NCBI GenBank assembly: GCA_031376455.1
Contig: JANMDU010000058.1
Span: forward strand, 45,388-109,387
Source of the DNA: Variovorax sp.
GTDB lineage: Bacteria > Pseudomonadota > Gammaproteobacteria > Burkholderiales > Burkholderiaceae_C
DNA length: 64,000 bases
Reading direction: 5' to 3'
Positions 13,346-62,123 of the stretch are shown here, piece by piece. Under the pieces are notes generated by a model. It was not told the DNA's origin. It searched no databases and saw only the letters and a program-made list of their open reading frames with translations. The position numbers and the translations under genes are program-made. Every line of letters begins with the position of its first letter. Position 1 is the first letter of the stretch.

Positions 13346-14398
13346 ATGACACCAATTTTCTCATCATTTTTTAAGCAAAAGAGGCCTTTTGCCGGCATAT
13401 ATACTGCGTGGAATGCTACTATTTTCATAGCAGTTATTATGGCACTACAACTCGGCCTATCAATTACTGCCTTTGCGCAAGCGTGGCCCAGCAAGCCAGT
13501 GCGCATCGTTGTGCCCTTCGCAGCGGGCGGCACGACCGATATCTTGGCGCGAGCGATTGCGCCTGAATTACAAAGAGCTTTTGGGCAAGCCTTCGTCGTC
13601 GAAAACCGCGCTGGAGCGGGGGGCAATGTGGGCGCGGAGCTTGTCGCAAAGAGCAATGATGGCCACACGATCCTCATGGGCACGGTAGGAACGCACGGCA
13701 TCAACAAAGCACTTTATCCCAGCTTGCCCTTCGATCCTGTCAAAGATTTTTCTCCAATCACTGTGGTGGCCTATGTGCCCAATGTGATGGTGATGAATGC
13801 AGAGAAAGCGCGCACTTTGAATATCAACTCAGTACAAGATTTCATCAGGTACGCCAAAGCCAACCCCGGTAAGCTGAATATGGCCTCCAGCGGCAACGGC
13901 ACCTCGATTCACTTGGCTGGCGAGCTGTTCAAAAGCATGGGCGATGTGTTCATGGTGCATTTCCCGTATCGCGGCTCAGGCCCTGCCCTGCTGGATTTGA
14001 TGGGCGGCAGCATGGATTTGATGTTTGACAATTTGCCTTCCGCTTTGCCGCAGATCAAAGCAGGAAAATTGAAAGCCTTGGCTGTGACGAGCAGCGCTCG
14101 CTCGAGCGCTCTGCCCGATGCCCCCACGGTCGAACAAGCAGGTGGCGCGGCGATGAAGGGTTTTGAAGCCAGCAGTTGGTTTGGCTTGCTCGCGCCTTCA
14201 TCCATGCCGGCCGCTCAGGTGCAACGCTTGCAACAAGAAACCGCCAAGGCGCTGGATCGCGCTGAAGTCAAAGACAAACTCGTCGCCCAAGGCGCATTGC
14301 CCGGGGGAAATAGTCCCGCAGATTTTGCCAAACACATTGATGCAGAAATCGCCAAATGGGCGAAAGTAGTCAAGGCATCTGGCGCGAAGGTCGATTAA
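13346..14398 (+). CDS. Bug/TctC family substrate-binding protein
   Basis: [31 protein letters not shown]. Confidence 0.92.
13364..13431 (+). repeat. Family-1 element in the Bug N-terminus
   Basis: ggccttttgccggcatatatactgcgtggaatgctactattttcatagc. Confidence 0.75.
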
Positions 14399-14410
14399 AA
14401 CGAACCCTCT

Positions 14411-14716
14411 TCAAACACCCCAAGTGATGGGAGTTTTGGCTTTCGCGCTGCGTTCCATCAGCAGCACCAGCGGCCAAGCGCGGGTGCGCAGGCTGATGCG
14501 CTTATTGCCTTTTTCTTCGGGCTCATCTGAGGTTGCTCCCGAAGACTCTTCCGAGGCAATTGCTGCTTCAAGTGCGGCTTGAGCAGCCACCATTTGTTCG
14601 GGCAACAAAATTCCTTTGGCGTCAATGCCTTTGCCCATGATCTCCAAGACTTGTCGGCCTGTAGCCTCCAGCATGATCACATCGCCGCTGGCATCAGATT
14701 TGAATTTGTAGAGCAT
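14411..14716 (-). CDS. DUF1840 family protein
   Basis: MLYKFKS..GDVIML and ISLRTRAWPL pattern, recognised from memory. Confidence 0.78.
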   Translation of the reverse strand: MLYKFKSDASGDVIMLEATGRQVLEIMGKGIDAKGILLPEQMVAAQAALEAAIASEESSGATSDEPEEKGNKRISLRTRAWPLVLLMERSAKAKTPITWGV

Positions 14717-15405
14717 CAGACTTTACCTTTGTTGACTGGGGGCAGCTCATCGCCAAGCGAAACCGGGCGTGTGGCGGGGAATTCAGAAGCGCCAAAGCTG
14801 GAGTTGTTCACGGGTATCGTCTCAATAAATCCAGTGATCGGTGCGGCTACCTCCATGGCATCAGAGCCCGGCGCGCGGGGCTCTGGCGAAAGCGGCGCAT
14901 CCGTCTTGCGCTGCGACAGGGAAGCACGCAACTGATCGTAGGCTACAGCACGCGAACTGACCGTCTCAGGCCACCACGCTTGGCTGCTTGAAAGCTCATC
15001 ATGCGGGCAACCCGCATCGGGCAAGATGCGCCAGAGCACCGCTCGCACAGCGCGTGCTACATTCCTATCGTCCTCGCGAATGCGCTTGAGGACTTGCTGC
15101 TCAAATGCGCTGGATTGTGCCCAGAGCTGTTCATCCCAAACACGCAAGCTCACCTGTAATTGAAAGTAAGCATTATCGTCGTCCGCAATCGTGACGACCT
15201 CGTAGCTCAACCAGTGGACGGGAATACCAAAGAAGCTGGCTGTGCGAAATGCTGCTGCCCGCACGATCTCTCTGGCAGCTTTCACATTCTGGAGTTCGAC
15301 GTTGAGCGGTATCGGCTTGCCTTCCATGTCAAAGTAGCCTGTTGAAGGCGAGTCTGCATCAGCTTGATCAGGAGTTTTACCGAGGATTGTTTTAAGCCAG
15401 CTCAC
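14716..15405 (-). CDS. Hypothetical protein; probable GTG start at 15405 (ORF open to 15546)
   Basis: Long ORF with globular core and low-complexity tail; its TGA overlaps the DUF1840 ATG. Confidence 0.7.
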   Translation of the reverse strand: MSWLKTILGKTPDQADADSPSTGYFDMEGKPIPLNVELQNVKAAREIVRAAAFRTASFFGIPVHWLSYEVVTIADDDNAYFQLQVSLRVWDEQLWAQSSAFEQQVLKRIREDDRNVARAVRAVLWRILPDAGCPHDELSSSQAWWPETVSSRAVAYDQLRASLSQRKTDAPLSPEPRAPGSDAMEVAAPITGFIETIPVNNSSFGASEFPATRPVSLGDELPPVNKGKV

Positions 15406-15550
15406 TGTTTTTATCTCTGAGTTTTGATTTGATTGATTGTAGTGAAGGGAAAAATGGGCACAGTGACCGCTCAACCCAAAAATTGACCGCTGAGCGATTG
15501 GTCTTGACACGCCGTAGATCAGGGCAGCCGCCACATCGTTTGACAAAAGA

Positions 15551-15570
15551 ATAGTTTAGGTTTAAATTAT
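15551..15570. promoter_or_regulatory. Candidate MarR operator
   Basis: ATAGTTTA-ggtt-TAAATTAT (1 mismatch), 2 nt before the abmA ATG. Confidence 0.5.
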
Positions 15571-15572
15571 TC

Positions 15573-19610: not shown

Positions 19611-20819
19611 ATGAATCCACGCGCTTCCACCCAGCATTTGAGTCTGCCGTTTTTTGACGCGGCTCACAAAGACATTGGCAATTGCTTGGCGGATTGGCTG
19701 CCCAAGCAAGCAGTGAAAGAGAGCGATGATCGGGCGGCTTGCAAGGCTTGGGTGAAGTTGCTGGGGGCGAATCAGTGGCTGAAGTATTGTGTTCCGTCCG
19801 CACACGGCGGTGCGTTTGAGAAGATTGATTCACGCGCGCTAGTGATCTTGCGGGAGAACTTGGCTTTTCATTCTGCTTTGGGTGATTTTGCATTTGCAAT
19901 GCAGGGCTTGGGCACAGGTGCGATTTCGTTATCTGGCTCGCCTGAGTTGCAGAAAAACTATCTGCCTCAAGTCGCGCGTGGCGAAAAGATTGCCGCGTTT
20001 GCGCTGTCTGAGCCGGATGCGGGAAGTGATGTGGGCGCTATGAATACAGTAGCGTTTCACGCAGAAAATACGCCGGCTAGTGGCCATTTTTTCTATGAAA
20101 TTACAGGCCAAAAGACGTGGATCAGCAATGGCGGTATCGCTGATTTTTATTGCGTCTTTGCTAAGACAGATCTTGATGCGGGTTCACGCGGGATCAGTGT
20201 GTTTGTGTTGGATGCGGGCACGCAAGGCTTGGACGACAGCGAACACATCCAAGTGATGGCGCCTCATCCGCTCGCGGTGCTCAAGTTCGACAAATGCAAA
20301 GTGCCCAGTAGCCAAATGCTTGGCGAAGAAAACGGCGGCTTCAAGATTGCGATGGCAACGCTCGATATCTTCCGCCCCTCTGTTGCCGCTGCTGCTTTGG
20401 GGTTTGCACGCCGCGCTTTGCATGAAGCGCGCTCTTATGCGCAGCAGAGAAAAATGTTTGGCAAAACGCTGGCTGATCAACAAATCACGCAGGCCAAGCT
20501 GGGCGAGATGGCTGCACTGATTGATGCCGGCGCATTGCTCACCTACCGCGCGGCTTGGATGCGCGATGTGGCTCTGCCTGCCGGTGATGCATCACGAGAA
20601 GACTACACCGCTGCTGCTGCGATGGCAAAAATGGTCGCCACTGAAAACGCCAACAAAGTGATCGACATGTCGCTGCAAATGCACGGCGGCATGGGCGTGA
20701 AGGTCGGTACGCATATCGAAGCGTTGTATCGCGATATTCGCTCGCTGCGCATTTATGAAGGCGCCACCGAAGTACAGCAATTGATTCTCGGCAAATCTGT
20801 GCTCACTGGCGTGATTTGA
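19611..20819 (+). CDS. Acyl-CoA dehydrogenase
   Basis: ALSEPDAGSD, KTWISNG, YEGATEVQ; AAGGAG SD before ATG 19611. Confidence 0.93.
   Translation: MNPRASTQHLSLPFFDAAHKDIGNCLADWLPKQAVKESDDRAACKAWVKLLGANQWLKYCVPSAHGGAFEKIDSRALVILRENLAFHSALGDFAFAMQGLGTGAISLSGSPELQKNYLPQVARGEKIAAFALSEPDAGSDVGAMNTVAFHAENTPASGHFFYEITGQKTWISNGGIADFYCVFAKTDLDAGSRGISVFVLDAGTQGLDDSEHIQVMAPHPLAVLKFDKCKVPSSQMLGEENGGFKIAMATLDIFRPSVAAAALGFARRALHEARSYAQQRKMFGKTLADQQITQAKLGEMAALIDAGALLTYRAAWMRDVALPAGDASREDYTAAAAMAKMVATENANKVIDMSLQMHGGMGVKVGTHIEALYRDIRSLRIYEGATEVQQLILGKSVLTGVI
20037..20103 (-). repeat. Family-1 element, in-frame in the acyl-CoA dehydrogenase
   Basis: gctatgaatacagtagcgtttcacgcagaaaatacgccggctagtggcc. Confidence 0.75.
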
Positions 20820-24615: not shown

Positions 24616-25611
24616 TCAATCCACCCTCGCCCCACTCGCCTTCACCGGCTTCTCATACCTGGCCCGCTCGCCCTGCATGAAGGCGGCGAACTCAGATGCG
24701 CTGCTGGGCGATGGCTCGGCCATGAGGGTGGCGTAGCGGGTTTGGGTCTCGGGGGATTTGAGGGCGGTGGTCAACGCCGTGTTGAGTTTGTTCATCACTT
24801 CGGCGGGTGTGCCTGCGGGAGCAACGAGACCCCACCAAGTGTCGACTGCGAAGCCACTGAATAAATTGGGCATGGCCTCGGCGAGCGCGGGCACATCGGG
24901 CATGGTGCTGGAGCGTTTGAGGGTGGTGACGGCCAGCGCTTTGAGCTTGCCGCTGCGGATGTTGGGCGCGGCAGTGGCGAGGTTGTCGAAGTTGAAATCG
25001 ACTTGGGCTGAGAGCAAGGCCAGTTGCGCGGGATTGCCGCCGTTGTAGGGAATGTGGACGGCAAACACGCCAGCGCGCTGCTTGAACATTTCGCCGGCCA
25101 GATGGCCGCCTGAGCCGTTGCCGCCTGATGCGAAGTTGAGTTTGCCGGGGTTGGCTTTTGCGTAAGCGACGAAATCTTGCAGGGTGTTGATATTCAATCG
25201 CTTGGCCGTATCCGCATTCATCACCAGCACATTGGGCACGCGCAGCATTTGCGTGATCGGCGCGAAATCTTTGCCTGCGTCGTAGGGCATCTTGGCGTAG
25301 AGCCAAGGGTTGATAGCGTGTGTGGCGAGCGCGGCGATACCAATGGTCAATCCATCGGGTGCGGCTTTGGCCACAATGTCTGCGCCAATATTGCCGCCCG
25401 CGCCGGGTTTGTTGTCGATGATGACCGTGCCTAGGCTCGTTTTGACTTGCTCAGCAATGAGGCGAGCTGTCACGTCAATCGGGCCACCTGCTGCGTAGGG
25501 AACGACGAGGCGGATCGGCTTTTGTTGGCTAAAAGCGCTAGTAGCCGGCAGGGATATTGCGCTGAGCGCTATTGATTTAGTAGTGATGGAGAGGAGTTGG
25601 CGGCGTTGCAT
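24616..25611 (-). CDS. Bug/TctC family substrate-binding protein
   Basis: PIRLVVPYAAGGPID, DNKPGAGG. Confidence 0.92.
   Translation of the reverse strand: MQRRQLLSITTKSIALSAISLPATSAFSQQKPIRLVVPYAAGGPIDVTARLIAEQVKTSLGTVIIDNKPGAGGNIGADIVAKAAPDGLTIGIAALATHAINPWLYAKMPYDAGKDFAPITQMLRVPNVLVMNADTAKRLNINTLQDFVAYAKANPGKLNFASGGNGSGGHLAGEMFKQRAGVFAVHIPYNGGNPAQLALLSAQVDFNFDNLATAAPNIRSGKLKALAVTTLKRSSTMPDVPALAEAMPNLFSGFAVDTWWGLVAPAGTPAEVMNKLNTALTTALKSPETQTRYATLMAEPSPSSASEFAAFMQGERARYEKPVKASGARVD
25517..25584 (+). repeat. Family-1 element, in-frame in a Bug signal peptide
   Basis: gctagtagccggcagggatattgcgctgagcgctattgatttagtagt. Confidence 0.75.
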
Positions 25612-25739: not shown

Positions 25740-26741
25740 TTAATCCAGCTTCGCCCCCGAGCGCTTGATGATGGGCTCCCATTTCTTGGCCTCATCAGCA
25801 ATCAGCTTGCCGAAGTCATCTGCACTCCCACCCACCGCATCAAGCCCTGCAGATTTCATGCGCTCTTGCACCACGGCTTCTTTCATGGCGGCGTTGATGG
25901 CGCTGTTGATGCGGTCAATCGTTGCGCGCGGTGTGCCAGCAGCCACCAGCACGCCGTTCCATGCGATGGCTTCAAAGCCTGCGAGCTCTTTCAAGCCGCT
26001 GCTCTCCACGGTGGGCAGCTCAGGCGTGAGGCTGTAGCGCGTTTTGCCTGTGACGGCCAGTGCTTTCATACGGCCTGCGCGCACCTGCGGCAAAATGAGC
26101 GTGGGCACGGTGGCGAGGATTTGTGTGTCGCCAGCAGCTGTGGCAAGCGCGGCAGGCGGGCCGCCGTTGAACGGGATGTGGACGGCGAATGTGCCCGTGA
26201 GCGCTTTCAGATACTCCATCGTGAGATGCGACGATGAGCCATTGCCCACCGAGGCGTAGTTGTACTTCCCAGGGTTGGCATTGAGCAGCGCGACCAGCTC
26301 TTTCATGTTGTTGGCAGGCACATTCGCGTTGACGGCAATGATGTTGGGCTGCGATGTGGTGATCACCACAGGGCTCAAATCTTTGAGCGGGTTGTAGGGC
26401 AGCTTGCTGTAGAGAAAAGGCGCAAACGCCACTGGGCCATTGAAACCAAGCAGCCAAGTGTGGCCATCGGGCGCGCTTTTGGCCACTTCGTTGGTGGCCA
26501 CGGTGCCGCCTGCGGCTGGGCGGTTTTCAATGACGATAGGTTGCCCCAGTGTGGCAGCCAGACGATCTTGCATCGCGCGGGCAATCGCATCGAGCGAGCT
26601 GCCTGCGCCGGAGGCAATGATCCAGCGGATGGGTTTGGAAGGGAAATTTTGAGAAAAAGCGGAGATAGCCGGCGTAGAGACTGCGCAAGCTGCTATGGTT
26701 TTGATAGTGTTTCGTCTAGTGATGAGACCAGGAAAAGTCAT
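25740..26741 (-). CDS. Bug/TctC family substrate-binding protein
   Basis: FPSKPIRWII, ENRPAAGG, NYASVGNGS. Confidence 0.92.
   Translation of the reverse strand: MTFPGLITRRNTIKTIAACAVSTPAISAFSQNFPSKPIRWIIASGAGSSLDAIARAMQDRLAATLGQPIVIENRPAAGGTVATNEVAKSAPDGHTWLLGFNGPVAFAPFLYSKLPYNPLKDLSPVVITTSQPNIIAVNANVPANNMKELVALLNANPGKYNYASVGNGSSSHLTMEYLKALTGTFAVHIPFNGGPPAALATAAGDTQILATVPTLILPQVRAGRMKALAVTGKTRYSLTPELPTVESSGLKELAGFEAIAWNGVLVAAGTPRATIDRINSAINAAMKEAVVQERMKSAGLDAVGGSADDFGKLIADEAKKWEPIIKRSGAKLD
26641..26708 (+). repeat. Family-1 element, in-frame in a Bug signal peptide
   Basis: ggagatagccggcgtagagactgcgcaagctgctatggttttgatagt. Confidence 0.78.
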
Positions 26742-40944: not shown

Positions 40945-41005
40945 AAAGAGTAGCGCTTTGCGCAGTAAATACGCCGGGTAAGTGCCAAAAAGGCTTAGAA
41001 ATTAC
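40938..41005 (-). repeat. Family-1 element; overlaps the DMT stop
   Basis: gctataaaaagagtagcgctttgcgcagtaaatacgccgggtaagtgccaaaaaggcttagaaat. Confidence 0.88.
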
Positions 41006-41012
41006 TCAAAGA

Positions 41013-42008: not shown

Positions 42009-44149
42009 GAGAGCGTCCTTTTCAGATGATTTTCAGCGTAACGCACATACCAATCCAAGCAATCCGGGTTTGCCATGGCATCTTTGTTCACCACTTTCTC
42101 TAGCGGCTGCCCCAGCATGAGTTTCTTGATCGGTAGCTCTTGCTTTTTACCGCTCAAAGTGCGCGGAATGGCATCAACTTGTAACGTCTCATTGGGTACG
42201 AAGCGCGGCGAGAGTTGTTTGCGGATGGCATCGTGTATTTTTTCTTTCAACGCATCATCCAGCATGAGGCCGGGGCGCAGAGCGACGAACAGTGGCATGA
42301 AGCTCGCCTTGCCCAAGTATTCCAAATCCACCACCAAGGCATCGAGCACTTCAGGTAGCGCTTCTACCGCCGAATAAATCTCACTCGTGCCCATGCGCAA
42401 GCCCGCGCGATTGATCGTCGCGTCACTTCGGCCATAGATAGTGCAGCCGCCATCCGTGCCGATTTTGAGCCAATCGCCGTGTCGCCAGACAAGGCGCTTT
42501 TCTCCTTGCGAATTGATCGTACTGTACATATCGAAATAGCTGGAGAGATAGCGCTCGTTGCCCGCATCGCCCCAAAAATACAGCGGCATGGAAGGAATCG
42601 GCTGTGTACACACCAGCTCGCCCACTTCGCCGATGACCGGTTGGCCATCTTCATTCCAAGCCTCTACCGCGCAACCGAGCAAGCGGCATTGCATTTGGCC
42701 GGGAATTTGCACTAACTCACGATGACCGCCAATGAATGCACCGCAAAAATCTGTGCCACCGGAGATGTTGCACCAGAAGATTTCCCAAGCCCGTTCGCCC
42801 AGAGCTTGACTCGTCCTGAGCTCGTCGAAGGGTCGAAGGGTGTGCTGATGGAGAGCTGCAAATTGCTCCGATCCCCAGCGCTGCACGTCTTCCGCCAACG
42901 GCGAGCCTGTGGAGCCCAGCGCACGCACTTGCCGCAGTTCATGCCCCGCTGTTTGCAATGCACCTGCGCTCACACCCGCCTTCATACAGTTAGCCCAATA
43001 CGCAGCGCCCGCACCAAAAAATGTGCAGCGATGCCGCGCCACAAATCGCCAAAGAATCGTCCAATCCGGCGCATCTTTCGAGCCGGATGGCGAGCCGTCG
43101 TAAATGCAAATCGTCGTGCCAGTAGCCAGCCCTGCCATCTGCGCATTCCACATCACCCAGCCCGTGGAGCTGTACCAGTGGTAGCGCTCGCCCCAGCTGT
43201 TGGCGTGATAACTGCAGCCCACATCATTGCCCAGCGATTTCATCGCGAGCAACGTCAGCACAATACCTCCATGGCCATGCACGATGGGCTTGGGCAAGCC
43301 GGTGGTGCCACTGGAGTAAACAATCCACAGCGGATGATCAAAGGGCAGCATCTCGGGCTTGAAGGTATCAATTTCTAAGCCTTTTCGATGGGTAGCAGGC
43401 ATAAAATCTGCGCACAGTGCTATTGATTTAATAGTATTTGATATTGCCCAAGGCGTGCGGAGCACGAGCAGATGGCTCACGCTCGGCAGCCCTGCGCACA
43501 GCTCCTGTACCACGCCCGAGCGGTCAAGCGCTTTGCCTGCGTAATGCACGCCATCCACAGCAATCAACACCTTTGGCGTGATCTGCTTGAAGCGATCGAG
43601 CACAGCCGGTGTGCCCATATCCGGCGCACACACGCTCCACACTGCGCCGATGCTCATCGTCGCCAAGCAAGCCACAATCGTCTCAGGAATGTTAGGCATA
43701 TACGCTGCCACGCGATCCCCGCGCTGCACGCCCATCTCGCGCAACGTGATCGCTAGCGACGCCACTTGAGATTTCAATTCGGGCCAGCTGAGCTCACGAA
43801 TCTCTCCCAGCTCGTTCTCGCTGACGATGGCCATCATGCCCGCTGCGTGCGAATCTGAAGCATGCCGCAACACCTGCGCCGCATAGTTCACCTGCGCACC
43901 AGGAAACCACTTGGCCTGCGGCATGCGGTCATCGGCCAATGCCGCGCTGTACGGCGTGGGTGACTCAATCTCAAAGTAATCCCAAATCGATTGCCAAAAT
44001 GCATCCAGCTCCGTCACAGACCATTGCCAAAGCGCGTCATAGGTTTCAAAACGCAGGCCGCGCTCGCGAGCAAGCCAGTCTTGATACAGGCGAATTTGCG
44101 CAATATTGGGTGGGCAAGCCAGTGATGAAGGCGTTAAAGTCATGAGCAA
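42005..44149 (-). CDS. Acetoacetate-CoA ligase
   Basis: YDALWQWSV, YSSGTTGLPK, ISGGTD, GRSDATINR.G.R.G. Confidence 0.92.
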   Translation of the reverse strand: MLMTLTPSSLACPPNIAQIRLYQDWLARERGLRFETYDALWQWSVTELDAFWQSIWDYFEIESPTPYSAALADDRMPQAKWFPGAQVNYAAQVLRHASDSHAAGMMAIVSENELGEIRELSWPELKSQVASLAITLREMGVQRGDRVAAYMPNIPETIVACLATMSIGAVWSVCAPDMGTPAVLDRFKQITPKVLIAVDGVHYAGKALDRSGVVQELCAGLPSVSHLLVLRTPWAISNTIKSIALCADFMPATHRKGLEIDTFKPEMLPFDHPLWIVYSSGTTGLPKPIVHGHGGIVLTLLAMKSLGNDVGCSYHANSWGERYHWYSSTGWVMWNAQMAGLATGTTICIYDGSPSGSKDAPDWTILWRFVARHRCTFFGAGAAYWANCMKAGVSAGALQTAGHELRQVRALGSTGSPLAEDVQRWGSEQFAALHQHTLRPFDELRTSQALGERAWEIFWCNISGGTDFCGAFIGGHRELVQIPGQMQCRLLGCAVEAWNEDGQPVIGEVGELVCTQPIPSMPLYFWGDAGNERYLSSYFDMYSTINSQGEKRLVWRHGDWLKIGTDGGCTIYGRSDATINRAGLRMGTSEIYSAVEALPEVLDALVVDLEYLGKASFMPLFVALRPGLMLDDALKEKIHDAIRKQLSPRFVPNETLQVDAIPRTLSGKKQELPIKKLMLGQPLEKVVNKDAMANPDCLDWYVRYAENHLKRTLS
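42791..42840. repeat. REP-like CCGTTCG..GAGCT.GTCGAAGGG fragment, in-frame in acetoacetate-CoA ligase
   Basis: ccgttcgcccagagcttgac-tcgtcctgagctcgtcgaaggg-tcgaaggg; internal direct duplications. Confidence 0.55.
43368..43435 (+). repeat. Family-1 element, in-frame in acetoacetate-CoA ligase
   Basis: aatttctaagccttttcgatgggtagcaggcataaaatctgcgcacagtgctattgatttaatagt. Confidence 0.78.
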
Positions 44150-44813: not shown

Positions 44814-47800
44814 CTAGCAGAGCAGCCGCTTCAAATACTTCCCCGTATAACTCGCCTCACTCTGCGCCACCTGTTCCGGCGTGCCAACTGCAACCACTTG
44901 CCCGCCCCCCGAGCCGCCCTCAGGCCCCATGTCGATGAGCCAATCGGCGGTTTTGATCACGTCGAGGTTGTGTTCGATGATGACGATGGTGTTGCCTGCG
45001 TCTCGCAATTGATGGAGCACTTTCAAGAGCAATTCAATGTCTGCAAAGTGCAAGCCGGTGGTGGGTTCGTCCAAGATATAGAGCGTGCGGCCGGTGTCGC
45101 GTTTGCTGAGTTCGAGCGCGAGCTTGACGCGCTGGGCTTCGCCGCCGGAGAGCGTGGTGGCGCTTTGGCCGAGGCGGATGTAGCTCAATCCCACGTCGAG
45201 CAAAGTTTGCAGCTTGCGCGCAATCGTGGGCACCGTTTTAAAGAATTCGAAGGCATCGCCTACGGTGAGGTCAAGCATGGCCGCGATGTTTTTGCCTTTG
45301 TAGAGGACTTCCAAAGTCTCGCGGTTATAGCGCAAGCCTTTGCAGACATCGCAGGGCACATACACATCGGGCAAAAAGTGCATCTCCACTTTCACCACGC
45401 CATCGCCTTGGCAGGCTTCGCAGCGGCCACCGGCCACGTTAAAACTAAAGCGTCCTGCGCCGTAGCCGCGCTCTCGGGCGACGGGCATCTCAGCGAGCAA
45501 TTCTCTGATCGGCGTAAAGAGTCCGGTATACGTTGCTGGGTTGGAGCGCGGCGTGCGGCCAATCGGAGATTGATCGACGTTGATCACTTTGTCGAAATGC
45601 TCCAAGCCTTCCATCTCGGCATAAGGCGTGGGCTCATCGTGGCTGCGATAGAGGCTGCGCGAGACGGCTTTGTGCAGCGTGTCGTTGACCAGCGTCGATT
45701 TGCCTGAGCCAGAGACGCCGGTGACGCAGGTCATGAGGCCAACCGGAAAGTCAACGCTCACGTTTTTCAGATTGTTGCCCGTCGCGCCAATCAATCGGAG
45801 CAGCTGGAATTTCTCGTCTACCTTGATGGTGGGCTCTTTCTTCTTGTAAGTGCGCTCGGGGTAGCGAGATTTCGCAGCGTACACGACAGGCGCTTTGATC
45901 TGAAGCGGCAGCCAAGCGTGGCGTTTGCTTGGCACAGCGATTTGCCGCCGCCCGCTCATGAATTGCCCCGTGAGCGAGTCGGGCGCTTCTTCGATTTGCT
46001 TGGCCGTGCCCTGCGCAATGATGCGCCCGCCATGAATGCCTGCGCCCGGGCCAATGTCCACCACATAATCGGCCGCGCGAATCATGTCTTCATCATGCTC
46101 CACCACGATCACGCTGTTGCCCAAATTGCGCAAATGCTTCAGTGTGCTGATGAGGCGATCATTGTCGCGCTGATGCAAGCCAATGCTCGGCTCATCGAGC
46201 ACATACATCACGCCCGTCAGTCCGCTGCCGATTTGCGAGGCGAGGCGAATGCGCTGCGATTCGCCGCCCGATAAAGTCTCTGCGCTGCGCGAGAGGCTGA
46301 GATAACTCAAGCCCACATCGTTTAAGAATTTCAGTCGCGAAGCAATTTCTTTGATCACCTTGCCAGCGATCTCTGCTTTCGCGCCTGTCATCTTCAAGCT
46401 CTCAAAATAGCGCTGTGCTTCAATCAAAGTTGCGCTACCGATTTGGCTGATAGTCTTTGATTGCGATGCATCCTTTGAGTCAACCAGCCGCACATTGCGC
46501 GCTTCGCGCTTCAAGCGCGTGCCTTCGCAAGCCGTGCAAGGCTGCGTATGCCGATAGCGCGCTAAATCTTCTCGCACAAGGCTCGATTCCGTCTCCCGGT
46601 AGCGCCGCTCCATGTTGTGGATGATGCCCTCAAACGGATGCTTCTTCTTGACTTTTTTGCCCACAGACTCACCGCTTTCCATGGTGTAGTTGAAGGCAAT
46701 ATCTTCTTCGCCGCTGCCCTGCAAAATCACGCTCTGCACGTGCTCTGGCAACTCCTCAAACGCTTTTTCCACATCAAATTTATAGTGCTTCGCCAGCGAT
46801 TCGATTAAGGCAAAGTAATAGCCATTGCGCCGATCCCAGCCTTTGATTGCGCCGCTGGCCAACGACAAAGATGGAAAGGCCACGATGCGAGATGGATCAA
46901 AAAACTCCATCATCCCAATACCGTCACACGTCTCGCAAGCGCCCATGGGCGAGTTAAAAGAAAACAATCTTGGCTCTAGCTCGCCAATGGTGAAGGCGCA
47001 GACCGGGCAAGCAAATTTTGCGTTGAACCAATGCTCACTTGTCTTCTTGCCTACTTTTGTGGCTGATTTTTCAAGTGTTTTAGCCACTTCGCCGGCGTGT
47101 TTATTGCGCAAAACGCTATCATTTTCATCATCCATATTCACGGCAATCGCTCTGCCTTCAGCCAAGCGCAGCGCTGCTTCAAAGCTTTCAGCGAGCCGCT
47201 GTTTCATCTCCGGCTTGACTTTGAGTCGATCAATCACCACATCAATATCGTGCTTCTCGGTTTTCTTCAGCTTAGGCAGTTCATTGAATTCAAACATCTG
47301 CCCGTTGATCCGAAAGCGCACATACCCTCGCGCCTGCATATCCTCAAACACATCTGCGAACTCGCCCTTCTTCTCCCGCGCAATCGGCGCCAGAATCATC
47401 ACCTTTGCATCCTGCGGCCAAGCTAATACTGCATCCACCATTTGCGAAACCGTTTGCGATTGCAGCGGCAGCAAGTGATCCGGGCAATGCGGTGTGCCCG
47501 CGCGAGCAAACAGCAAGCGCAAGTAGTCGTGGATCTCGGTCACGGTGCCCACAGTCGAGCGCGGGTTGTGGCTCGTGGCCTTCTGCTCAATCGAAATCGC
47601 AGGCGACAAGCCTTCAATCACATCCACATCCGGCTTATCCATCAGCTGCAAAAACTGCCGCGCATAGGTCGACAAACTCTCCACATACCGCCGCTGCCCC
47701 TCGGCATACAGCGTGTCAAATGCCAGCGAAGATTTGCCCGAGCCCGACAAGCCCGTGATCACGACAAGTTGATTGCGCGGAATATCCAAATCCACATTTT

Positions 47801-48834: not shown

Positions 48835-49719
48835 TTGAATACCCGCCTAGTCCTTTATCTCGATCTGATTCGTTGGAATCGCCCGGCTGGCTGGCTGCTG
48901 CTGCTGTGGCCGACGCTCTCTGCTTTATGGATTGCAGCCGGCGGCTTCCCAGGATGGCATTTGATCATCGTGTTTACTTTAGGCACGATCCTTATGCGTA
49001 GCGCTGGCTGTTGTGTCAACGATGTTGCCGACGCAGATTTTGACAAGCATGTGAAGCGCACCGCTGGGCGACCTGTCACCAGTGGCAAAGTAAGCAAAAA
49101 AGAAGCGCTACTGCTTGGCGCTTGCCTATCTCTGCTGGCTTTCGGCTTCGTGCTCACCACGAATTTGCTCACGGTGCTGTATTCGTTTGCCGCGCTAGCG
49201 ATCACGCTCGCGTATCCCTTCGCCAAGCGCTTCGTTGCGATGCCGCAAGCCGTGCTCGGCGTCGCATTCAGCTTCGGGATTCCGATGGCCTTCGCTGCAG
49301 TATCGGGCGGCAACTCGCTAAACGAGTTGCAAGGCGGTGTATCCAAACTCGCTTGGATTTTGCTGCTTGGTAATCTCTTCTGGGTGCTTGCCTACGACAC
49401 GGAATACGCCATGGTGGATCGGGATGATGATCTGCGCATCGGCATGAAAACATCGGCCATCACGCTCGGGCGCTTTGATGTAGCCGCTATCATGCTTTTT
49501 TATGGTGTTTATATGCTTTTTTGGCTGATAGCCGGCATAGAATCTGCGCAAAATGCTATCAAATTAGTAGTATTGATCAGCATGAGTGGGCAAATCTTTT
49601 GGCATTGGCAGCTCATCCGCACGCGCTCGCGCGAGGGCTGTTTCAAAGCGTTTCGACTCAATCACTGGCTCGGTTTGACGCTGTTTATCGGCATCGTTGC
49701 AGCCAGCTTGGTCAAGTAA
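48835..49719 (+). CDS. ubiA: 4-hydroxybenzoate octaprenyltransferase
   Basis: [32 protein letters not shown]. Confidence 0.95.
49504..49571 (+). repeat. Family-1 element, in-frame in ubiA
   Basis: ttttttggctgatagccggcatagaatctgcgcaaaatgctatcaaattagtagt. Confidence 0.82.
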
Positions 49720-55444: not shown

Positions 55445-56830
55445 ATGACAAGCTTTCATTCGCTAGGCCATTCACCACTCAATCGCCGCAGCTTGATCGC
55501 GCAAGCCATGGCGCTTGGCGCAAGCGGCTTGATGAGTGGGCAAGTGTTGGCCCAGCGCGCACCGAGCGGCTCGCCAGCAGGCGCGTTGAATCAAGGCCGG
55601 ATGGTGGTTGTCTTCCTGCGCGGCGCGTATGACGGGCTCTCAGCGCTTGTGCCCTATGCGGATAAAAATTACTACGCCATGCGTCCGAATATCGCCATCG
55701 CCGCGCCCGATGGCTCGCGCGAGACGGCGCTCAGACTCGATGATCGTTTTGCCATGCATCCCGCACTCTCGCCCCTCATGCCGCTGTGGAATGAGGGCTC
55801 ACTCGGCGTGATTGCCAGCGCTGGCTTGGCTACGCCGAATCGCTCGCATTTTGATGCGCAGTATTTGATGGAGATTGGTTTGCAAGAGAAGAGCAGCACG
55901 CCGATGGGCTGGCTCAACAAGCTCTCAGCCAGCAGCGCAGGCTCAGCACTTGGCGTGGGCGAGGCCAATCCGGCGATTCTCTCAGGCCAAGCCGCTGTCA
56001 AGCTGATCCCGCGTGGGGATGCCGCTGCGCGCACCGGCGTGTTGGCCAACGAGAAACAACGCAGCGCCTTGATGGATTTGTATGCGGGCAATGACACGGT
56101 CAGCGAAGCATTTCGCCAAGGCGCGGGCAGCCGTATGCAGACCTCGCAAGAGCTCATCAATGAGCGCAATATGCGCACCGCGAATGCCAACGCCAATGCG
56201 GAAATAGACGGGATGGCCAATACAAACAATCGGCGCATGCTTGACAAACATGGCACGCCGCAAACCACTGCGGCACAAGCGGCACAAATGCAAGCTGCCA
56301 GCAATGGCGCGGCAGACCCTGTCGGCCTCGCTCTTGATGCTCAACACCTCGCCACGCTTATGCGCAACGATCCCAAACTGCGCCTTGGCTTCCTATCCGC
56401 CGGCGGCTGGGATACGCATGCCAATCAGGGCAATGCGGTGGGTGGCTTGGCCAATAATTTAGGCAATCTCGCACGCGGTCTGGCGCAATTGCGTAGCGAA
56501 TTCGATCAAAGTGGCGATCTCATCATCGTCATGAGCGAATTTGGCCGCACGAGCGCAGAAAACGGCACAAAGGGCACCGATCACGGCTTTGGCAACGCGC
56601 TCTGGCTGATCGGCAACCGTGTGCAAGGCGGCAAAGTGCATGGACTGTGGACGGGGCTTGCTCGTGGCAACTTAAACGACAACCGCGATCTGCCTGCACA
56701 TCACGATTACCGCGCCGTACTCGCGCAGGCTCTGCGCAGCACGTTTGCATTGCCTGATTCCCAGTTGCAAACGCTGCTGCCCGGTAGCAATTGGGATCAG
56801 CGCCTAGATGGATTATTTCGTAAAACTTAA
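55445..56830 (+). CDS. DUF1501 family protein, Tat-like leader
   Basis: NRRSLI leader; FLRGAYDGL, SHFDAQ, GGWDTH, SEFGRT, GTDHG. Confidence 0.92.
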   Translation: MTSFHSLGHSPLNRRSLIAQAMALGASGLMSGQVLAQRAPSGSPAGALNQGRMVVVFLRGAYDGLSALVPYADKNYYAMRPNIAIAAPDGSRETALRLDDRFAMHPALSPLMPLWNEGSLGVIASAGLATPNRSHFDAQYLMEIGLQEKSSTPMGWLNKLSASSAGSALGVGEANPAILSGQAAVKLIPRGDAAARTGVLANEKQRSALMDLYAGNDTVSEAFRQGAGSRMQTSQELINERNMRTANANANAEIDGMANTNNRRMLDKHGTPQTTAAQAAQMQAASNGAADPVGLALDAQHLATLMRNDPKLRLGFLSAGGWDTHANQGNAVGGLANNLGNLARGLAQLRSEFDQSGDLIIVMSEFGRTSAENGTKGTDHGFGNALWLIGNRVQGGKVHGLWTGLARGNLNDNRDLPAHHDYRAVLAQALRSTFALPDSQLQTLLPGSNWDQRLDGLFRKT

Positions 56831-56888
56831 AGCGTTTTTGGCAGTTCGCCGGCGTATTTATTGCGTAAAGTGCTATTCTTTTTGCAGT
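56821..56888 (+). repeat. Family-1 element; left end overlaps the DUF1501 stop
   Basis: tttttggcagttcgccggcgtatttattgcgtaaagtgctattctttttgcagt. Confidence 0.88.
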
Positions 56889-57015
56889 AACCTGTAGACT
56901 TCTATTTGCGTCGCAGCGTCTGAATACGACCGCCACAGACCACAGGCCTGCAAATGCGGCGAGGAGCAGCAGACTGTCCCCGCCTTGATAGCATAGTCAA
57001 GCGATTGTTGAAACA

Positions 57016-60284: not shown

Positions 60285-60311
60285 GGTCTGCTTTCGCGGC
60301 ACAATCACCAC

Positions 60312-60755
60312 ATGGAATTATTCAAGAGCATAGCGGCAAAAGGGATGACAACAGCCGCCGCTGCCTCGTCTGCTTTTCCTGCACGATTGACCACGAAAGC
60401 TGTGGGAGACAGCGGCGAAGAACTGGCATTGCGCTTCCTGCTCAAAAATGGTTTGCAGCTCATTGCGCGCAATTTCAAAACGCCGGGACGCGGCGGCGGC
60501 GAGGTAGATCTGATCATGCGCGCAGCCGATAGCACGCTGGTCTTCGTGGAAGTGCGCCAGCGCAAGAGCGCAAGCCATGGCGGCGCAGCGGCCAGTATCG
60601 GCACACAGAAGAAGCGGCGCATTATCTATGCCGCGCAGCATTACATCAGCCATCTTGTGCGCATGCCGCCTTGCCGCTTTGATGTGATCGCGCTCCATGG
60701 CGAGGGCGCAGAGGCGAAGATAGACTGGCTGGTCGCAGCTTTTGATGCATCCTGA
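60312..60755 (+). CDS. yraN: YraN/UPF0102 family protein; start uncertain
   Basis: G..GE..A, RN, GEVDLI, FVEVR, RFDVI; synteny. Confidence 0.9.
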   Translation: MELFKSIAAKGMTTAAAASSAFPARLTTKAVGDSGEELALRFLLKNGLQLIARNFKTPGRGGGEVDLIMRAADSTLVFVEVRQRKSASHGGAAASIGTQKKRRIIYAAQHYISHLVRMPPCRFDVIALHGEGAEAKIDWLVAAFDAS

Positions 60756-60849
60756 TGCAAATATGGCGTAAAAATCTCAGTTTGCACCCACAAATACAAG
60801 AAACTCTGCTATCAATTTAGTATCATTGCGGCAAGACCAATTGCCTACC

Positions 60850-61455
60850 ATGCTCGAACAACGCATTGAAAAAAATTTCATCGACAGCGCCGACTTAACC
60901 TACCAAGCTGCACTGGTGTTAGGCAAACCGATCGCACAGGCCACCGAAGCGCTGCTCGCCTGCGTCACCAATGGTGGCAAGGTGCTGATCTGTGGCAATG
61001 GCGGTTCGGCTGCGCAGGCGCAGCACTTTGCCGCTGCGTTCGTTGGGTGCTATGAGCGCGAGCGCCCTGAACTTGCCGCGATTGCTTTGACGAGCGACAG
61101 CGCCATCTTCAATGCGATGAGCCATGACAATGGGTTCGAGCTGATTTTTGCGAGGCAACTGCGCGCCCTCGGTACGGGGGGCGATGTGCTCGTGGCACTC
61201 TCGGCCAGCGGTAATTGCGCCAATGTGATCAAAGCCATCGAAGTGGCGCAAGAGCGCGAGATGATCGTGATCGCGCTCACGGGAAGTCAAGACGGGAAAA
61301 TAGGCGGCAAGATCGGTGCGATGCTATCTGAGACGGATGTGCATATTTGTGTGCCGCATGCTCGCGCATCGCGGATTCAAGAGGTTCATCTGCTCGCGCT
61401 GCATTGCTTGTGCGACGGAGTAGATGCCATGTTGTTGGGTGATCAGGAGAATTGA
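60850..61455 (+). CDS. SIS-domain protein, GmhA/DiaA family
   Basis: CGNGGSA, IQEVH; lies between yraN and BON like E. coli diaA. Confidence 0.88.
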   Translation: MLEQRIEKNFIDSADLTYQAALVLGKPIAQATEALLACVTNGGKVLICGNGGSAAQAQHFAAAFVGCYERERPELAAIALTSDSAIFNAMSHDNGFELIFARQLRALGTGGDVLVALSASGNCANVIKAIEVAQEREMIVIALTGSQDGKIGGKIGAMLSETDVHICVPHARASRIQEVHLLALHCLCDGVDAMLLGDQEN

Positions 61456-62123
61456 TGAACACTATGAATTTAATAGCACGTCGCGCAGTATTAATGCCGG
61501 CTACTGCTCTAGTAGGATCATATTTATTGGCCGGCTGTGTACCTTTGGTGATAGGTGGCGCAGTCGTGGGTGGCACGCTTGTTGCCACAGATCGTCGAAC
61601 TTCCGGCGCGCAGTTGGAAGATGAGGGCATTGAGTTGCGCAGCACCAACCGCTTGCGTGAAGCTTTCATCGAACGGGTGCATATCAATGCCAACAGCTAC
61701 AACCGCCAAGTGTTGCTGACAGGCGAAGTACCCACAGAAGCCGATAAAGTGCGGGCGCAAGAGATCGTGAGTCGCGTGGAAAATGTACGCAGCATCGTCA
61801 ATGAACTCGCCGTCTTGGGCAACACATCCCTGACTTCGCGCTCCTCCGATTCGCTCGTCACGGGCCGCGTGAAAGCAGGCTTTGTGGACGCGAAAGATTT
61901 ATATGCCAACGCCTTTAAAGTCGTCACCGAGCGCGGCACGACATATCTGATGGGCCGCGTCTCTCAGCGAGAAGCCAACCGCGCTACTGATATCGCCCGT
62001 ACCACGCCCGGCGTACAACGCGTCGTGCGCGTGCTGGAGATCATCAGCGAAGAAGAGTTGCAGCGCGCGCTCCCGCAACCCGCTAAGCCAAGCACTTCTG
62101 CGCCCACGAATCCCTCCAATTAA
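61452..62123 (+). CDS. Dual-BON-domain lipoprotein (YraP/DolP-like)
   Basis: Lipobox LAGC; DRRTSG...D, VLLTGEV, YLMG.V. Confidence 0.9.
   Translation: MMNTMNLIARRAVLMPATALVGSYLLAGCVPLVIGGAVVGGTLVATDRRTSGAQLEDEGIELRSTNRLREAFIERVHINANSYNRQVLLTGEVPTEADKVRAQEIVSRVENVRSIVNELAVLGNTSLTSRSSDSLVTGRVKAGFVDAKDLYANAFKVVTERGTTYLMGRVSQREANRATDIARTTPGVQRVVRVLEIISEEELQRALPQPAKPSTSAPTNPSN
61461..61527 (-). repeat. Family-1 element, in-frame in the BON lipoprotein signal peptide
   Basis: actatgaatttaatagcacgtcgcgcagtattaatgccggctactgc. Confidence 0.75.

Follow-up and report, generated by a model that had tools for sequence, protein, structure and literature searches.

The Rickettsia palindromic elements (RPE; Ogata et al. 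2000, Science 290:347) are reportedly repeats of which many lie in frame within protein-coding genes. Like the repeat family described here, they are short, high in copy number and restricted to one genus; many of their genic copies are in frame without destroying the gene, insertions are conserved among species, and the encoded peptide is tolerated at permissive protein sites. They differ from the present family in sequence and in host (here a free-living genus of Comamonadaceae) and in length (~100 to 150 nt versus ~66 nt), while the element described here has no significant palindromic fold and is involved in about 50 leaders. To our knowledge, no account presents RPEs as systematically giving rise to signal peptides, and a full-text literature search combining RPE and signal peptides found nothing. 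The DNA uptake sequences (USS/DUS) of Pasteurellaceae and Neisseria also have preferred reading frames in tolerant protein segments. They resemble the present family as abundant motifs whose coding copies are limited to particular frames and permissive protein regions, but they are cores of 9 to 12 nt rather than a 66-nt unit, and we have no evidence of a DNA-uptake role for the element described here.

RPE work is cited in PMC2229807 and PMC2759123. A stretch of the predicted YPO1552 signal peptide consists of the Yersinia small mobile sequence YPAL/RU-2 (Delihas 2007, PMC2759123; Delihas 2008, PMC2229807). As here, an intergenic repeat of small size, open in a hydrophobic frame, has joined a gene in frame and contributes to a signal peptide predicted to be cleaved, and the signal sequences of homologues from other genera are unrelated. 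YPAL/RU-2 is, however, a MITE-like sequence of 103 to 168 bp with terminal inverted repeats, reported in this role for one main locus encoding a hypothetical protein of unknown function, whereas the present family involves dozens of well-known envelope proteins with genus-wide conservation and measured enrichment and adaptation. MITEs and REP/REPIN sequences, the subject of two reviews (PMC10969869, PMC3184786) and of an account of REP-associated transposases (PMC2817692), are likewise non-autonomous short dispersed repeats with hundreds of copies, mostly at gene boundaries; for our element, by contrast, neither terminal inverted repeats nor a target-site duplication were found, it is not a GC-rich hairpin, and a third of its copies are translated.

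Throughout, the window is the whole 64,000-nt stretch of DNA that was analyzed; the host is a freshwater betaproteobacterium with a 3.4-Mb genome. The repeat unit is ~66 nt long (TACTATTAATTTAATAGCACTTTGCGCAGTATATACGCCGGCTAACTGCCTAAAAGGCTTAAAAAA), and a profile search of the genome returned 876 copies at E ≤ 1e-4. Its core pattern is matched 16 times in the window, versus 2.07 expected from shuffles, and 536 times in the genome, where the reversed control pattern has 0 matches. The element was found in 15 of 15 same-genus genomes searched and was essentially absent outside the genus (~120 other genera of the family searched). Its ends are sharp, AT-rich and non-genic in look, about half of all copies are non-coding, and the AT-rich, near-palindromic 5′ arm is atypical of coding sequence in a genome of 54% GC. 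A search for terminal inverted repeats at the ends and for target-site duplications flanking the copies found none, and fold prediction gave no significant structure. On each strand, exactly one frame of the consensus has no stop codon. The peptides from these two open frames are rather hydrophobic (ITINLIALCAVNTPANCLKSLKN and FFKLFRQLAGVFTAQSAIKLIV), and both frames are used in leaders; the first-pass annotation had rightly called the encoded peptide hydrophobic but had counted a single frame. The forward frame of the consensus (K-x-IALCAV-x-MPA) looks like a good n/h/c core, while the 3′ third encodes the charged NCLKSLKN and no cleavage region.

We put at roughly 85% the probability that in-frame translation of this genus-specific, high-copy repeat yields much of the export signal of ~50 envelope proteins. 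Five such leaders lie in the window. All five sites were significant family members (E 1e-4 to 5e-13) when the whole 3.4-Mb genome was searched with an nhmmer profile made from 10 other copies in the window, with the five leader copies left out.

13346..14398, plus strand: Bug/TctC periplasmic binding protein gene, start at 13346 upstream of the element (PF03401, E 1e-64)
13363..13434, minus strand: element copy in the leader of that gene, reverse-strand frame (nhmmer E 5e-13)
24616..25611, minus strand: Bug/TctC gene, start ATG at 25611 (MQRRQLLS...; PF03401, E 4e-72)
25519..25587, minus strand: element copy in its leader, forward frame (nhmmer E 1.3e-6; 2.3e-10 on the locus set)
25740..26741, minus strand: Bug/TctC gene, tandem paralogue of the 24616 gene (PF03401, E 1e-73)
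26663..26711, minus strand: element copy in its leader, forward frame (nhmmer E 2.4e-7)
33857..34453, plus strand: Chalcone_3 (chalcone-isomerase-like, CHI-like) protein gene, predicted exported (PF16036, E 2e-8)
33886..33949, plus strand: element copy in its leader, forward frame (nhmmer E 1.3e-4; 1.2e-8 on the locus set)
61455..62123, plus strand: BON-domain lipoprotein gene (PF04972, E 3e-24)
61456..61505, plus strand: element copy in its leader, forward frame (nhmmer E 2.6e-8)

The first-pass annotation had proposed that the element encodes much of these five leaders, and both the nhmmer matches and the translations agree; Pfam likewise bears out its family names (three TctC/Bug, one Chalcone_3, one BON), and translating those bases in the gene frames gives the peptides it quoted. 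In the 13346 gene, the element does encode part of the leader, residues ~7 to 30 of 44, but from the reverse-strand frame: it gives the n-region and an extra hydrophobic stretch, a host-type h/c-region follows, and the cleavage site does not come from the element. The 25519..25587 copy, kept in 12 same-genus loci, encodes residues ~9 to 31 (ITTKSIALSAISLPATSAFSQQK), which provide both h-region and AFS|Q site in a predicted 28-aa leader; the 26663..26711 copy, kept across 15 same-genus loci, encodes residues ~10 to 27 (RNTIKTIAACAVSTPAI), with SAFS|Q next, in the diverged 3′ third. The earlier proposal had the element seemingly supply the AFS motif in two cases; AFS|Q is a derived state of leader copies, the consensus encoding ...PANCLKSLKN. 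The 24616 and 25740 genes form direct repeats spaced 1124 nt apart (D1, D12, D16), and their leaders probably descend from one insertion; because these genes are tandem paralogues, the five leaders, all real, represent at most four events. In the CHI-like protein the copy encodes residues ~11 to 31 (NATVMIAFSAYLMPASSLFAS), with clearer copies in same-genus orthologues (e.g., ..VLIALCAGFMPATGQLAYA, 2e-14). In the BON lipoprotein it encodes residues ~2 to 17 (NTMNLIARRAVLMPATA), which make up the n-region and the h-region's first half; a host-type tail and lipobox (LLAG|C) come next, and copies in same-genus orthologues score between 1e-5 and 3e-14.

The leaders belong to a broader set of in-frame gene copies. 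About a third of copies are translated, and 273 lie in frame within genes with coding signal on both flanks, 212 of them in the two open frames. Other copies in the window are as follows.

275..353, minus strand: intergenic copy (nhmmer; intergenic copies E 1e-14 to 2e-19)
9932..10004, minus strand; 11306..11383, plus strand; 40934..41008, plus strand; 56818..56892, minus strand: intergenic copies (nhmmer, same E range)
20032..20107, plus strand: in-frame copy in an acyl-CoA dehydrogenase gene, forward frame
35669..35747, plus strand: copy forming the final ~22 codons and stop codon of an MFS transporter gene
43365..43439, minus strand: in-frame copy in an acetoacetyl-CoA-synthetase-like gene, forward frame (nhmmer and Pfam)
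47059..47134, minus strand: in-frame copy inside uvrA, in a third frame (filled and empty same-genus sites)
49505..49573, minus strand: in-frame copy in the membrane region of ubiA, reverse frame (nhmmer and Pfam)

The uvrA site is filled in nine same-genus genomes and empty in three (G010, G012, and G002); the family therefore does insert into coding sequence.

Genome-wide, element copies are present in 53 predicted leaders, of which ~7 look like false calls by a crude rule set that is also partly circular, since a hydrophobic element makes an export call more likely. These 53 copies in 70 kb of leader amount to 0.75 per kb, compared with 0.13 per kb in other coding sequence (5.7-fold, binomial p = 5e-22) and 0.125 per kb in the first 35 codons of non-exported proteins (p = 9e-16). 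Two controls avoid the circularity. Bug proteins, whose export status is independent of the predictor, have 5 copies in the leaders of 39 paralogues and 0 in ~11,600 mature codons (by our own arithmetic p ~1e-5, or ~1e-4 with the tandem pair counted once). Among 20 sampled carriers, at least 15 belong to typical envelope families (e.g., DsbC, PBP5, MltB-like, MlaA, GspD, SCO1); carrier families judged independently of their N-termini are MlaA, SCO1, GspD secretin, DsbD_N, PBP5-type S11 peptidase and SLT_2 transglycosylase, and further GDPD, SIMPL, TolA-binding YbgF-like, DsbC, PCuAC, DUF1223 and cupredoxin. At gene 5′ ends, in-frame phases are in excess in both the reverse (43/33/86, chi-square p = 4e-7) and the forward orientation (34/47/67, p = 0.004). 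Enrichment in leaders over other coding sequence, on which the first-pass annotation had let its proposal depend, is thus found both genome-wide and in the Bug family, and supports the view that leaders tolerate or co-opt the insertion and that the repeat may be building targeting signals. Since leader density does not exceed the density in non-coding DNA (1.02 copies per kb), tolerance plus adaptation in place suffices, and active co-option or positive selection for insertions is not demonstrated.

Leader copies are adapted. Mean hydropathy in the forward frame is 1.30 in leaders, compared with 0.76 in non-coding copies (read virtually) and 0.19 in internal copies (p = 2e-6 and 1e-16), the number of charged residues is 0.85, 1.66, and 2.43, respectively, and the reverse frame follows the same trend; copies within genes, for example uvrA, are the more hydrophilic ones. 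CCGGC..GCTTTTTCTCA is common to seven copies, down to the choice of synonymous codons (GCT TTT TCT), and six of the seven lie in leaders of proteins unrelated to one another (DsbC, SIMPL, cupredoxin, a Bug protein, and two others with His-starting mature parts); TTRATGCCGGC, which encodes LMPA, is found in 8 of 32 leader copies in the forward frame versus 8 of 546 others. Such sharing would be expected if a leader-adapted sub-lineage (..IALCAGLMPAI(S/T)AFS(Q/H)) spread or were copied between genes as a portable signal-peptide cassette, by transposition or gene conversion between copies, so that leaders would be more than mere sites of tolerated insertion; we think this unlikely. It would also fit the normal length of forward-frame leaders (median 30 aa, versus 36 aa for reverse-frame leaders and 29 aa for leaders without the element), as if the native leader had been replaced, and the near equality of leader and non-coding densities, although only one-third of random insertions would be open-frame. 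Leader copies, however, cluster at amino-acid-changing positions and not at third codon positions (nearest-neighbour clustering 5.2% versus 3.7% expected, p = 0.28), in keeping with convergent selection acting on the same initial sequence; the shared TTTTT can be explained by a T-loop variant found among ordinary copies (CTTTTTGCTT, 11 copies); and the leader copies examined are all ancient and orthologous across the genus, with no recent gene-to-gene transfer seen.

We regard as very improbable the reverse direction, in which the family arose from a signal-peptide-coding segment turned mobile. The core-like forward consensus would suit it, as would a GC-rich genome of another genus (G131), in which the core of the leader MKSLIATLSIALCAGLMPAGSAFA|D fits the search pattern at 0 mismatches and other copies number no more than a handful. 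The large non-coding share, the AT-rich, non-genic-looking ends, and the charged 3′ third of the consensus argue against it, and by our own estimate a 22-codon stretch with one open frame on each strand is not statistically unusual.

Hardly credible is the idea that copies lie in 5′ untranslated regions, with true starts downstream and the open frames an accident of the stop-free consensus. With one open frame per strand, ~1/3 of copies just upstream of genes would be in frame by chance; our home-made gene calls and start choices favoured the downstream ATG at 13439; and some public annotations of orthologues of the 25740 gene are 311 aa long and start inside the element. In one reverse-frame lipoprotein, two orthologous or paralogous copies are interrupted within the element by an in-frame TAG, and their translation has to begin at an internal Met, so the upstream part of reverse-frame leaders can be dispensable, and some upstream starts in this class may be wrong. 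Nevertheless, the start codons of the five window genes lie upstream of the element or within its 5′ arm, and public gene calls contain the exact proteins from 13346, 25611, 26741, 33857, and 61455 and none of the shorter or longer alternatives tried (e.g., the 13439 start or the TTG-25644 form). Orthologues do not conserve the ATG at 13439; an upstream ATG and an open frame through the element, by contrast, are present in 9 of 10 same-genus orthologues retaining the extension (L100 lacks the ATG). Forward-frame leaders have their sole predicted hydrophobic core and cleavage site in or right behind the element, and mature Pfam domains begin directly behind it. Same-genus orthologues of all five leaders diverge yet keep the open frame and a signal-peptide look, while those in other genera have unrelated leaders (an RRR-type leader in the outgroup of the 13346 gene, and lipoprotein leaders of similar length in ~70 BON orthologues). 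This comparison had been proposed in the first-pass annotation, and it speaks, with the core, cleavage-site, and Pfam positions, against the downstream starts considered there. The DsbC and 390-aa lipoprotein leaders behave likewise, and the SCO1 leader is conserved across the genus (same-genus comparison only). The phase excess, the obligate envelope nature of the carriers, and differences between leader and non-coding copies exactly as signal-peptide selection predicts point the same way. That leaders resemble the repeat through convergence or composition (Ala/Leu-rich peptides, GC-rich codons) is very improbable as well: ordinary leaders here do have motifs such as ..AAMPATAQ (Bug at 12129), and clustering confined to amino-acid-changing positions shows convergence acting on these sequences, but the best leader copies reach E 1e-14 to 1e-17 in the whole-genome nhmmer search, the match takes in the atypical 5′ arm, and orthologues outside the genus lack the genus-confined element.

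On the preferred reading, translation of the repeat as export signals, the ~66-nt repeat would have landed in, or recombined into, many genes. Because the consensus is stop-free in one fairly hydrophobic frame per strand, copies would survive in coding sequence where the peptide is harmless or useful, and a cleaved N-terminal signal peptide would be the most permissive such place. The forward frame, (N/T)-T-(I/M)-K-x-I-A-L-C-A-V-x-M-P-A, would provide an n-region Lys, an h-core of 8 to 9 residues and a Pro-Ala helix break, its 3′ third either having become a remodelled site of the AxA type (AFS|Q, AFA|Q, ATA|Q) or passing into what remains of a host tail with its lipobox; given the normal length of these leaders, the element would now stand in for the native one. 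The reverse frame, F-F-K-x-N-R-x-L-A-G-V-x-x-A-Q-S-A-I-x-L-I-V, would add a basic n-region and an extra hydrophobic stretch before the host h/c-region, making leaders ~7 aa longer. The near-palindromic 5′ arm could readily give an ATG (from ATT), and the element may sometimes supply the start codon. We infer that the leader peptides are working Sec, Tat, or lipoprotein signals, and that insertion in a genus ancestor was followed by trimming and adaptation. None of the leader sites examined shows a clean before/after state within the genus; because all are ancient, insertion followed by trimming and recombinational replacement look alike. If this reading is true, selfish repeat DNA has been reused as protein-targeting signals on an unusual scale.

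Repeats of 50 to 65 nt are spread over the window in both orientations, and their core pattern, TAGCNNTNNGCGCAN8GCCGGC, occurs there 16 times against 2.07 expected from shuffles. A profile of the window copies gave about 1,000 matches across the genome that holds the window (C138:45388-109387; 3,395,967 bp in 160 contigs, 54.3% GC), and a refined profile gave 876 copies at E ≤ 1e-4, rising to 960 at E ≤ 0.01. When the best copies were aligned together with flanking sequence, a unit of ~66 nt with sharp bounds emerged, TACTATTAATTTAATAGCACTTTGCGCAGTATATACGCCGGCTAACTGCCTAAAAGGCTTAAAAAA; among the 278 best copies, information content falls to zero within 2 to 4 nt of both ends. The consensus is free of stops in exactly one frame per strand, reading ITINLIALCAVNTPANCLKSLKN in the forward and FFKLFRQLAGVFTAQSAIKLIV in the reverse direction.

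The element matches none of several familiar repeat classes. The ends and flanks of the 278 best copies contained no TIR, conserved target duplication, or conserved target, and membership among the MITEs was dropped for lack of a TIR and a target-site duplication. A structured-RNA or hairpin reading was likewise abandoned because the consensus fold (−10.1 kcal/mol, z = 0.24) is no better than that of shuffled sequences; the palindromes present (CTAT..ATAG, TGCGCA, and GCCGGC) are short and local only, and an Rfam scan of the window matched zero families. In structure and composition the element also does not fit REP/REPIN sequences, which are GC-rich imperfect palindromes of 20 to 40 nt that often come as inverted pairs and are accompanied by a RAYT transposase gene. 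The window also has another repeat family, unrelated to the element, with TTCCGTG/CACGGAA-like units forming long inverted repeats between genes, at 4484-4590, 18063-18092, 48771-48818, and 62180-62232 (repeat-search entries D8, D13, and I9).

The host genus belongs to the Comamonadaceae, and the closest relatives are MAGs and one isolate (Variovorax sp. PCZ-1), labeled “Variovorax sp.,” whose sources are streams fed by glaciers and habitats of that kind. By BLAST the element is present in 15 of 15 same-genus genomes and in 0 of 26 other genera. With up to one mismatch, this genome has 536 occurrences of the core pattern and 0 of a reversed control pattern; the core pattern is seen 0 to 2 times in 119 further genera of this family and six times in one. 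The six matches in the GC-rich genome of that different genus (G131; sites C303:3350-3750 [L235], C197 [L236], and C229 [L237]) include copies with an element-like AT-rich 5′ arm and a leader, MKSLIATLSIALCAGLMPAGSAFA↓DAGHDHGD; they represent either a cousin family present in few copies or leader-bearing genes gained by horizontal transfer.

Five genes in the window carry the element in their leaders, as the first-pass annotation had claimed:

13346, start of a Bug gene (Pfam TctC/Bug); element read in its reverse-strand frame
25611, minus strand, ATG start of the Bug gene 24616 (TctC/Bug); forward frame
26741, minus strand, start of the Bug gene 25740 (TctC/Bug); forward frame
33857, start of the CHI-like gene (Pfam Chalcone_3); forward frame
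61455, start of the BON lipoprotein gene (Pfam BON); forward frame

All five were matched in a genome-wide search with a profile built from ten other window copies, the leaders themselves being left out (E-values of 5e-13, 1.3e-6, 2.4e-7, 1.3e-4, and 2.6e-8). Translation returned the peptides that the annotation had quoted, and Pfam agreed with the protein families that it had named. Where it had spoken of one small, hydrophobic frame, two open frames are in use, the forward one in four leaders and the reverse one in the 13346 gene. The predicted cleavage sites or lipobox read AFA↓Q, AFS↓Q, AFS↓Q, LFA↓S, and LLAG↓C. Since the 24616 and 25740 genes are tandem paralogs (1,124-nt register), the five leaders represent at most four events.

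The true starts do not lie downstream of the element, as public gene calls, conserved open frames, and orthologs all indicate. A public protein collection with independent gene calls holds the exact products that begin at the five starts listed, while products from 13439, 25644, 61464, and 61452 are absent from it. An uninterrupted frame runs through the element into the mature protein in ten same-genus orthologs of the 13346 gene, with an upstream ATG present in nine (the exception is ortholog L100), and the Met at 13439 aligns with differing residues. In the 24616, 25740, and CHI-like genes, the sole hydrophobic core and the cleavage motif lie in the element region, which is kept in frame at 12 to 16 same-genus loci.

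Same-genus orthologs thus keep the element leader, whereas the other genera examined have unrelated ones: the 13346 ortholog in a genome of another genus starts with an ordinary leader of the RRR type, the CHI-like proteins of outgroups have unrelated leaders, and the BON lipoprotein has the element leader in seven same-genus orthologs (nhmmer, 1e-4 to 3e-14) and unrelated lipoprotein leaders of similar length in ~70 orthologs from Polaromonas, Rhodoferax, Curvibacter, and others. On one contig of a same-genus MAG (G010:C29; L117 and L131), two Bug genes are 99 to 100% identical to the 24616-26741 pair of the window, and the same MAG has its own orthologs on C45 that are 83 to 87% identical; with 5% contamination reported for this MAG, C29 probably stems from a strain close to the window strain, the other option being a very recent transfer.

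Orthologs of the 25740 gene appear in public annotation as 311-aa and as 329- or 333-aa forms (e.g., MBS7809094.1 versus WP_249661446.1 of Variovorax sp. PCZ-1). Judging from the length difference, the 22-aa shorter form would begin near the Met of ..SMPAI.. inside the element and be without a signal peptide; if so, the element misleads start prediction. Gene callers and pipelines are inconsistent in start placement at element copies (e.g., 311 versus 329 aa), a point that matters for annotation.

Across the genome, where a home-made gene caller based on ORFs and codon usage gave 3,109 genes (87% coding), 125 copies sit at the 5′ end of an ORF whose in-frame start precedes the middle of the element. 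Many unrelated proteins thereby start with M..NTIKxIALCAVLMPAI(S/T)AFSQ.. or with ..FFKxNRxLAGVxxAQSAIxLIA followed by a host-type tail. Predicted signal features (a basic n-region, an uncharged hydrophobic h-region, and a c-region having small residues at −3/−1 or a lipobox ahead of Cys+1) were found in 53 element N termini, ~46 of which are convincing on inspection. The crude, rule-based signal-peptide caller, also home-made, assigned leaders to 748 of the 3,109 genes and 35 of 40 Bug hits. The enrichment in leaders that the first-pass annotation had named as a check was borne out, predicted leaders having 5.7-fold more copies than all other coding sequence (P = 5e-22).

Density of element copies by genomic compartment
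Predicted leaders (53 copies in 70 kb): 0.75 per kb
Mature parts of exported proteins: 0.078 per kb
First 35 codons of other proteins: 0.125 per kb
Rest of other proteins: 0.152 per kb
Non-coding DNA: 1.02 per kb

As this caller is partly circular with the element, a census of the Bug family and a Pfam sample served as independent controls. A leader copy is present in 5 of 39 full-length Bug paralogs and none in ~11,600 mature codons (by our own arithmetic P ~ 1e-5, or ~1e-4 when the tandem pair is counted once). Of 20 carriers sampled, at least 15 fall within typical envelope families by Pfam; the sample includes MlaA, SCO1/SenC, GspD secretin, DsbD_N, S11 D-Ala-D-Ala carboxypeptidase (PBP5-type), SLT_2 (MltB-like), GDPD, SIMPL, TolA-binding YbgF-like, DsbC, PCuAC, DUF1223, and cupredoxin proteins. 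In a sampled sensor kinase and an ABC permease, the element forms an N-terminal membrane segment. Because ORF calls themselves need open frames, we anchored a phase test on the first start downstream of the element, and it showed that the open phases are overrepresented where genes begin (reverse, 43/33/86, P = 4e-7; forward, 34/47/67, P = 0.004) corresponding to ~75 translated N-terminal copies. These sequence-level results support the interpretation of the first-pass annotation that a repeat may be supplying targeting signals, here putative Sec or lipoprotein signal peptides.

Leaders are one niche of a wider in-gene phenomenon. Inside ORFs with coding signal on both sides lie 273 copies, 212 of which use the two open frames; window examples are found in uvrA, an acetoacetyl-CoA-synthetase-like gene, ubiA, an acyl-CoA dehydrogenase gene, and the C terminus of an MFS transporter, and the Pfam domains around the in-gene window copies are intact. 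The uvrA copy is polymorphic:

47059-47134, element copy in uvrA, compared at loci L001-L015

The site is empty in three genomes (G010, G012, and G002) and filled in nine of the same genus, which proves that the element family enters coding sequence. In place of 9 nt in the empty allele (ACGCAGAAA), filled alleles contain 63 nt of element, and those 9 nt resemble the 3′ end of the element (ACGCCTGAAAAA). The alleles hint that entry is not a simple insertion and suggest microhomology or replacement at uvrA instead.

Once in place, copies differ according to context. For this comparison a single reading frame was applied to all copies, non-coding ones being translated virtually. Relative to non-coding copies, leader copies are more hydrophobic (P = 2e-6) and less charged (P = 7e-5), while internal copies depart in the opposite direction (hydropathy, P = 1e-16; charge, P = 2e-7); the reverse frame changes in the same direction.

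Forward-frame translation of element copies by context
Leader copies: mean hydropathy 1.30, charged residues 0.85
Non-coding copies: mean hydropathy 0.76, charged residues 1.66
Internal copies: mean hydropathy 0.19, charged residues 2.43

In two cases the first-pass annotation had the element apparently supplying the AFS cleavage motif; the motif is indeed present in leader copies, but the consensus encodes ..PANCLKSLKN, which the leaders have changed to ..PAI(A/S)AFS... Internal copies in soluble proteins have IALRAD in place of IALCAV (genome-wide; window 43365-43439 and 47059-47134). The same 22 codons, drifting opposite ways in leaders and soluble proteins, have thus been molded by context. 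Met at the third codon rises from 12% of non-coding copies to 30% of leader copies, indicating that the start codon often comes from the element's 5′ arm, the BON gene being one case. Forward-frame leaders are of normal length (median 30 aa versus 29 without the element), whereas those in the reverse frame have a greater median (36 aa, P = 0.007). The forward frame thus now takes the place of the native leader, and the reverse frame is an addition ahead of it.

Whether leaders tolerate or co-opt the insertion had been left as alternatives. Since copy density in leaders (0.75 per kb) does not exceed that in non-coding DNA (1.02 per kb), tolerance alone can explain where copies survive. It is improbable, though slightly less so than the next possibility, that the element is more than tolerated and acts as a portable signal-peptide cassette, a leader-adapted lineage, ..NTIKxIALCAxLMPAI(S/T)AFS(Q/H), replacing the native leaders of envelope proteins that are unrelated to one another. 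Replacement would proceed by recombination or gene conversion between copies or by templated repair, and it would explain the normal length of forward leaders, the replacement of 9 nt at uvrA, and the near-identical leader DNA, which according to this proposal is found in several copper-handling and redox proteins. If it were true, a selfish repeat would be homogenizing export signals throughout a genus and renewing them as well.

Leaders of the form ..IALCAGLMPA(I/T)xAFS↓H, nearly identical in DNA and with a mature His start, were observed at C2:21068, C2:21713, C21:9881, and C149:16162; Pfam confirms only a cupredoxin among these proteins, C2:21068 and C149:16162 lying outside the scan. A PCuAC copper chaperone ~600 bp from C2:21068 has a different element-derived leader.

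Improbable as well, by a slightly wider margin, is a leader-specific sublineage of the element that moves between genes. CCGGC..GCTTTTTCTCA is common to seven copies, down to the choice of synonymous codons, and six of the seven are leaders of unrelated proteins; on all sites leader copies are mutual nearest neighbors more often than expected (20.8% versus 3.7%, P < 0.001). At third codon positions, however, the clustering is gone (5.2% versus 3.7%, P = 0.28), so the shared AFS-type ends read as convergence from common material and not as shared descent, and a T-loop variant of the ordinary element can explain the shared TTTTT. We therefore prefer the explanation that leader copies adapted convergently where they stood to that of a mobile cassette; in the pairing of tolerance with co-option, tolerance suffices and the mobile form of co-option is disfavored.

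All leader copies examined (those of SCO1, DsbC, a 390-aa lipoprotein, and the five genes in the window) are genus-wide and older than the radiation of the genus, within which orthologs are 70 to 95% identical. No within-genus before/after pair was found at the leaders of SCO1, DsbC, the 390-aa lipoprotein, BON, CHI-like, or the three Bug genes, and the only filled/empty pair within the genus is that of uvrA. In a lipoprotein homologous to that at C10:32936, two loci (L196 and L205, from G010 and G007) have an in-frame TAG inside the reverse-frame element copy, which forces the start to the internal Met of the element (MNLIASRLTILIAC..LGC), and the restarted leader reads MNLIASRL...LGC; one species has a trimmed leader of the same lipoprotein. 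Different parts of one element thus serve as leader in different species. In several species, orthologs of the 13346 gene (L097-L106) have ..TARRA(S/T)LLIA.. in place of the element-encoded ..TAQSAIKLI.., a twin-arginine-like motif that has arisen inside the repeat-derived sequence of a Bug protein leader.

Rickettsia palindromic elements (RPEs), the subject of work by Ogata in 2000, are reportedly selfish repeats translated within genes. By function, as an in-frame intragenic repeat, the element is RPE-like: it has high copy number, restriction to one lineage, and in-frame copies inside intact host genes, it has no stable palindromic hairpin, and its host is a Comamonadaceae genus instead of Rickettsia. 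The usual view of signal-peptide evolution is that each gene's own N terminus drifts slowly. A single-locus precedent for a repeat-derived leader exists in Yersinia, where a YPAL/RU-2 sequence lies in the predicted signal peptide of YPO1552 (PMC2759123; PMC2229807), and the same two papers cite RPEs as selfish repeats translated inside genes. Literature searches found no description of the element itself or of repeat-derived leaders at such a scale.

About 7% of the predicted leaders in a free-living bacterium derive from one selfish repeat, and the carriers include housekeeping envelope proteins (DsbC, the PBP5-type carboxypeptidase, the MltB-like transglycosylase, MlaA, the GspD secretin, and SCO1). 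The element-derived leaders may be of practical use, as a set of related export signals that comes ready with its natural variants. They also amount to a natural experiment in which one start sequence of ~22 codons has been placed in leaders, in the interiors of soluble proteins, and in non-coding DNA, and the opposite divergence in leaders and soluble interiors directly measures what selection demands of a leader. Selfish DNA in genes, of the Rickettsia type, is thereby extended to an abundant environmental lineage.
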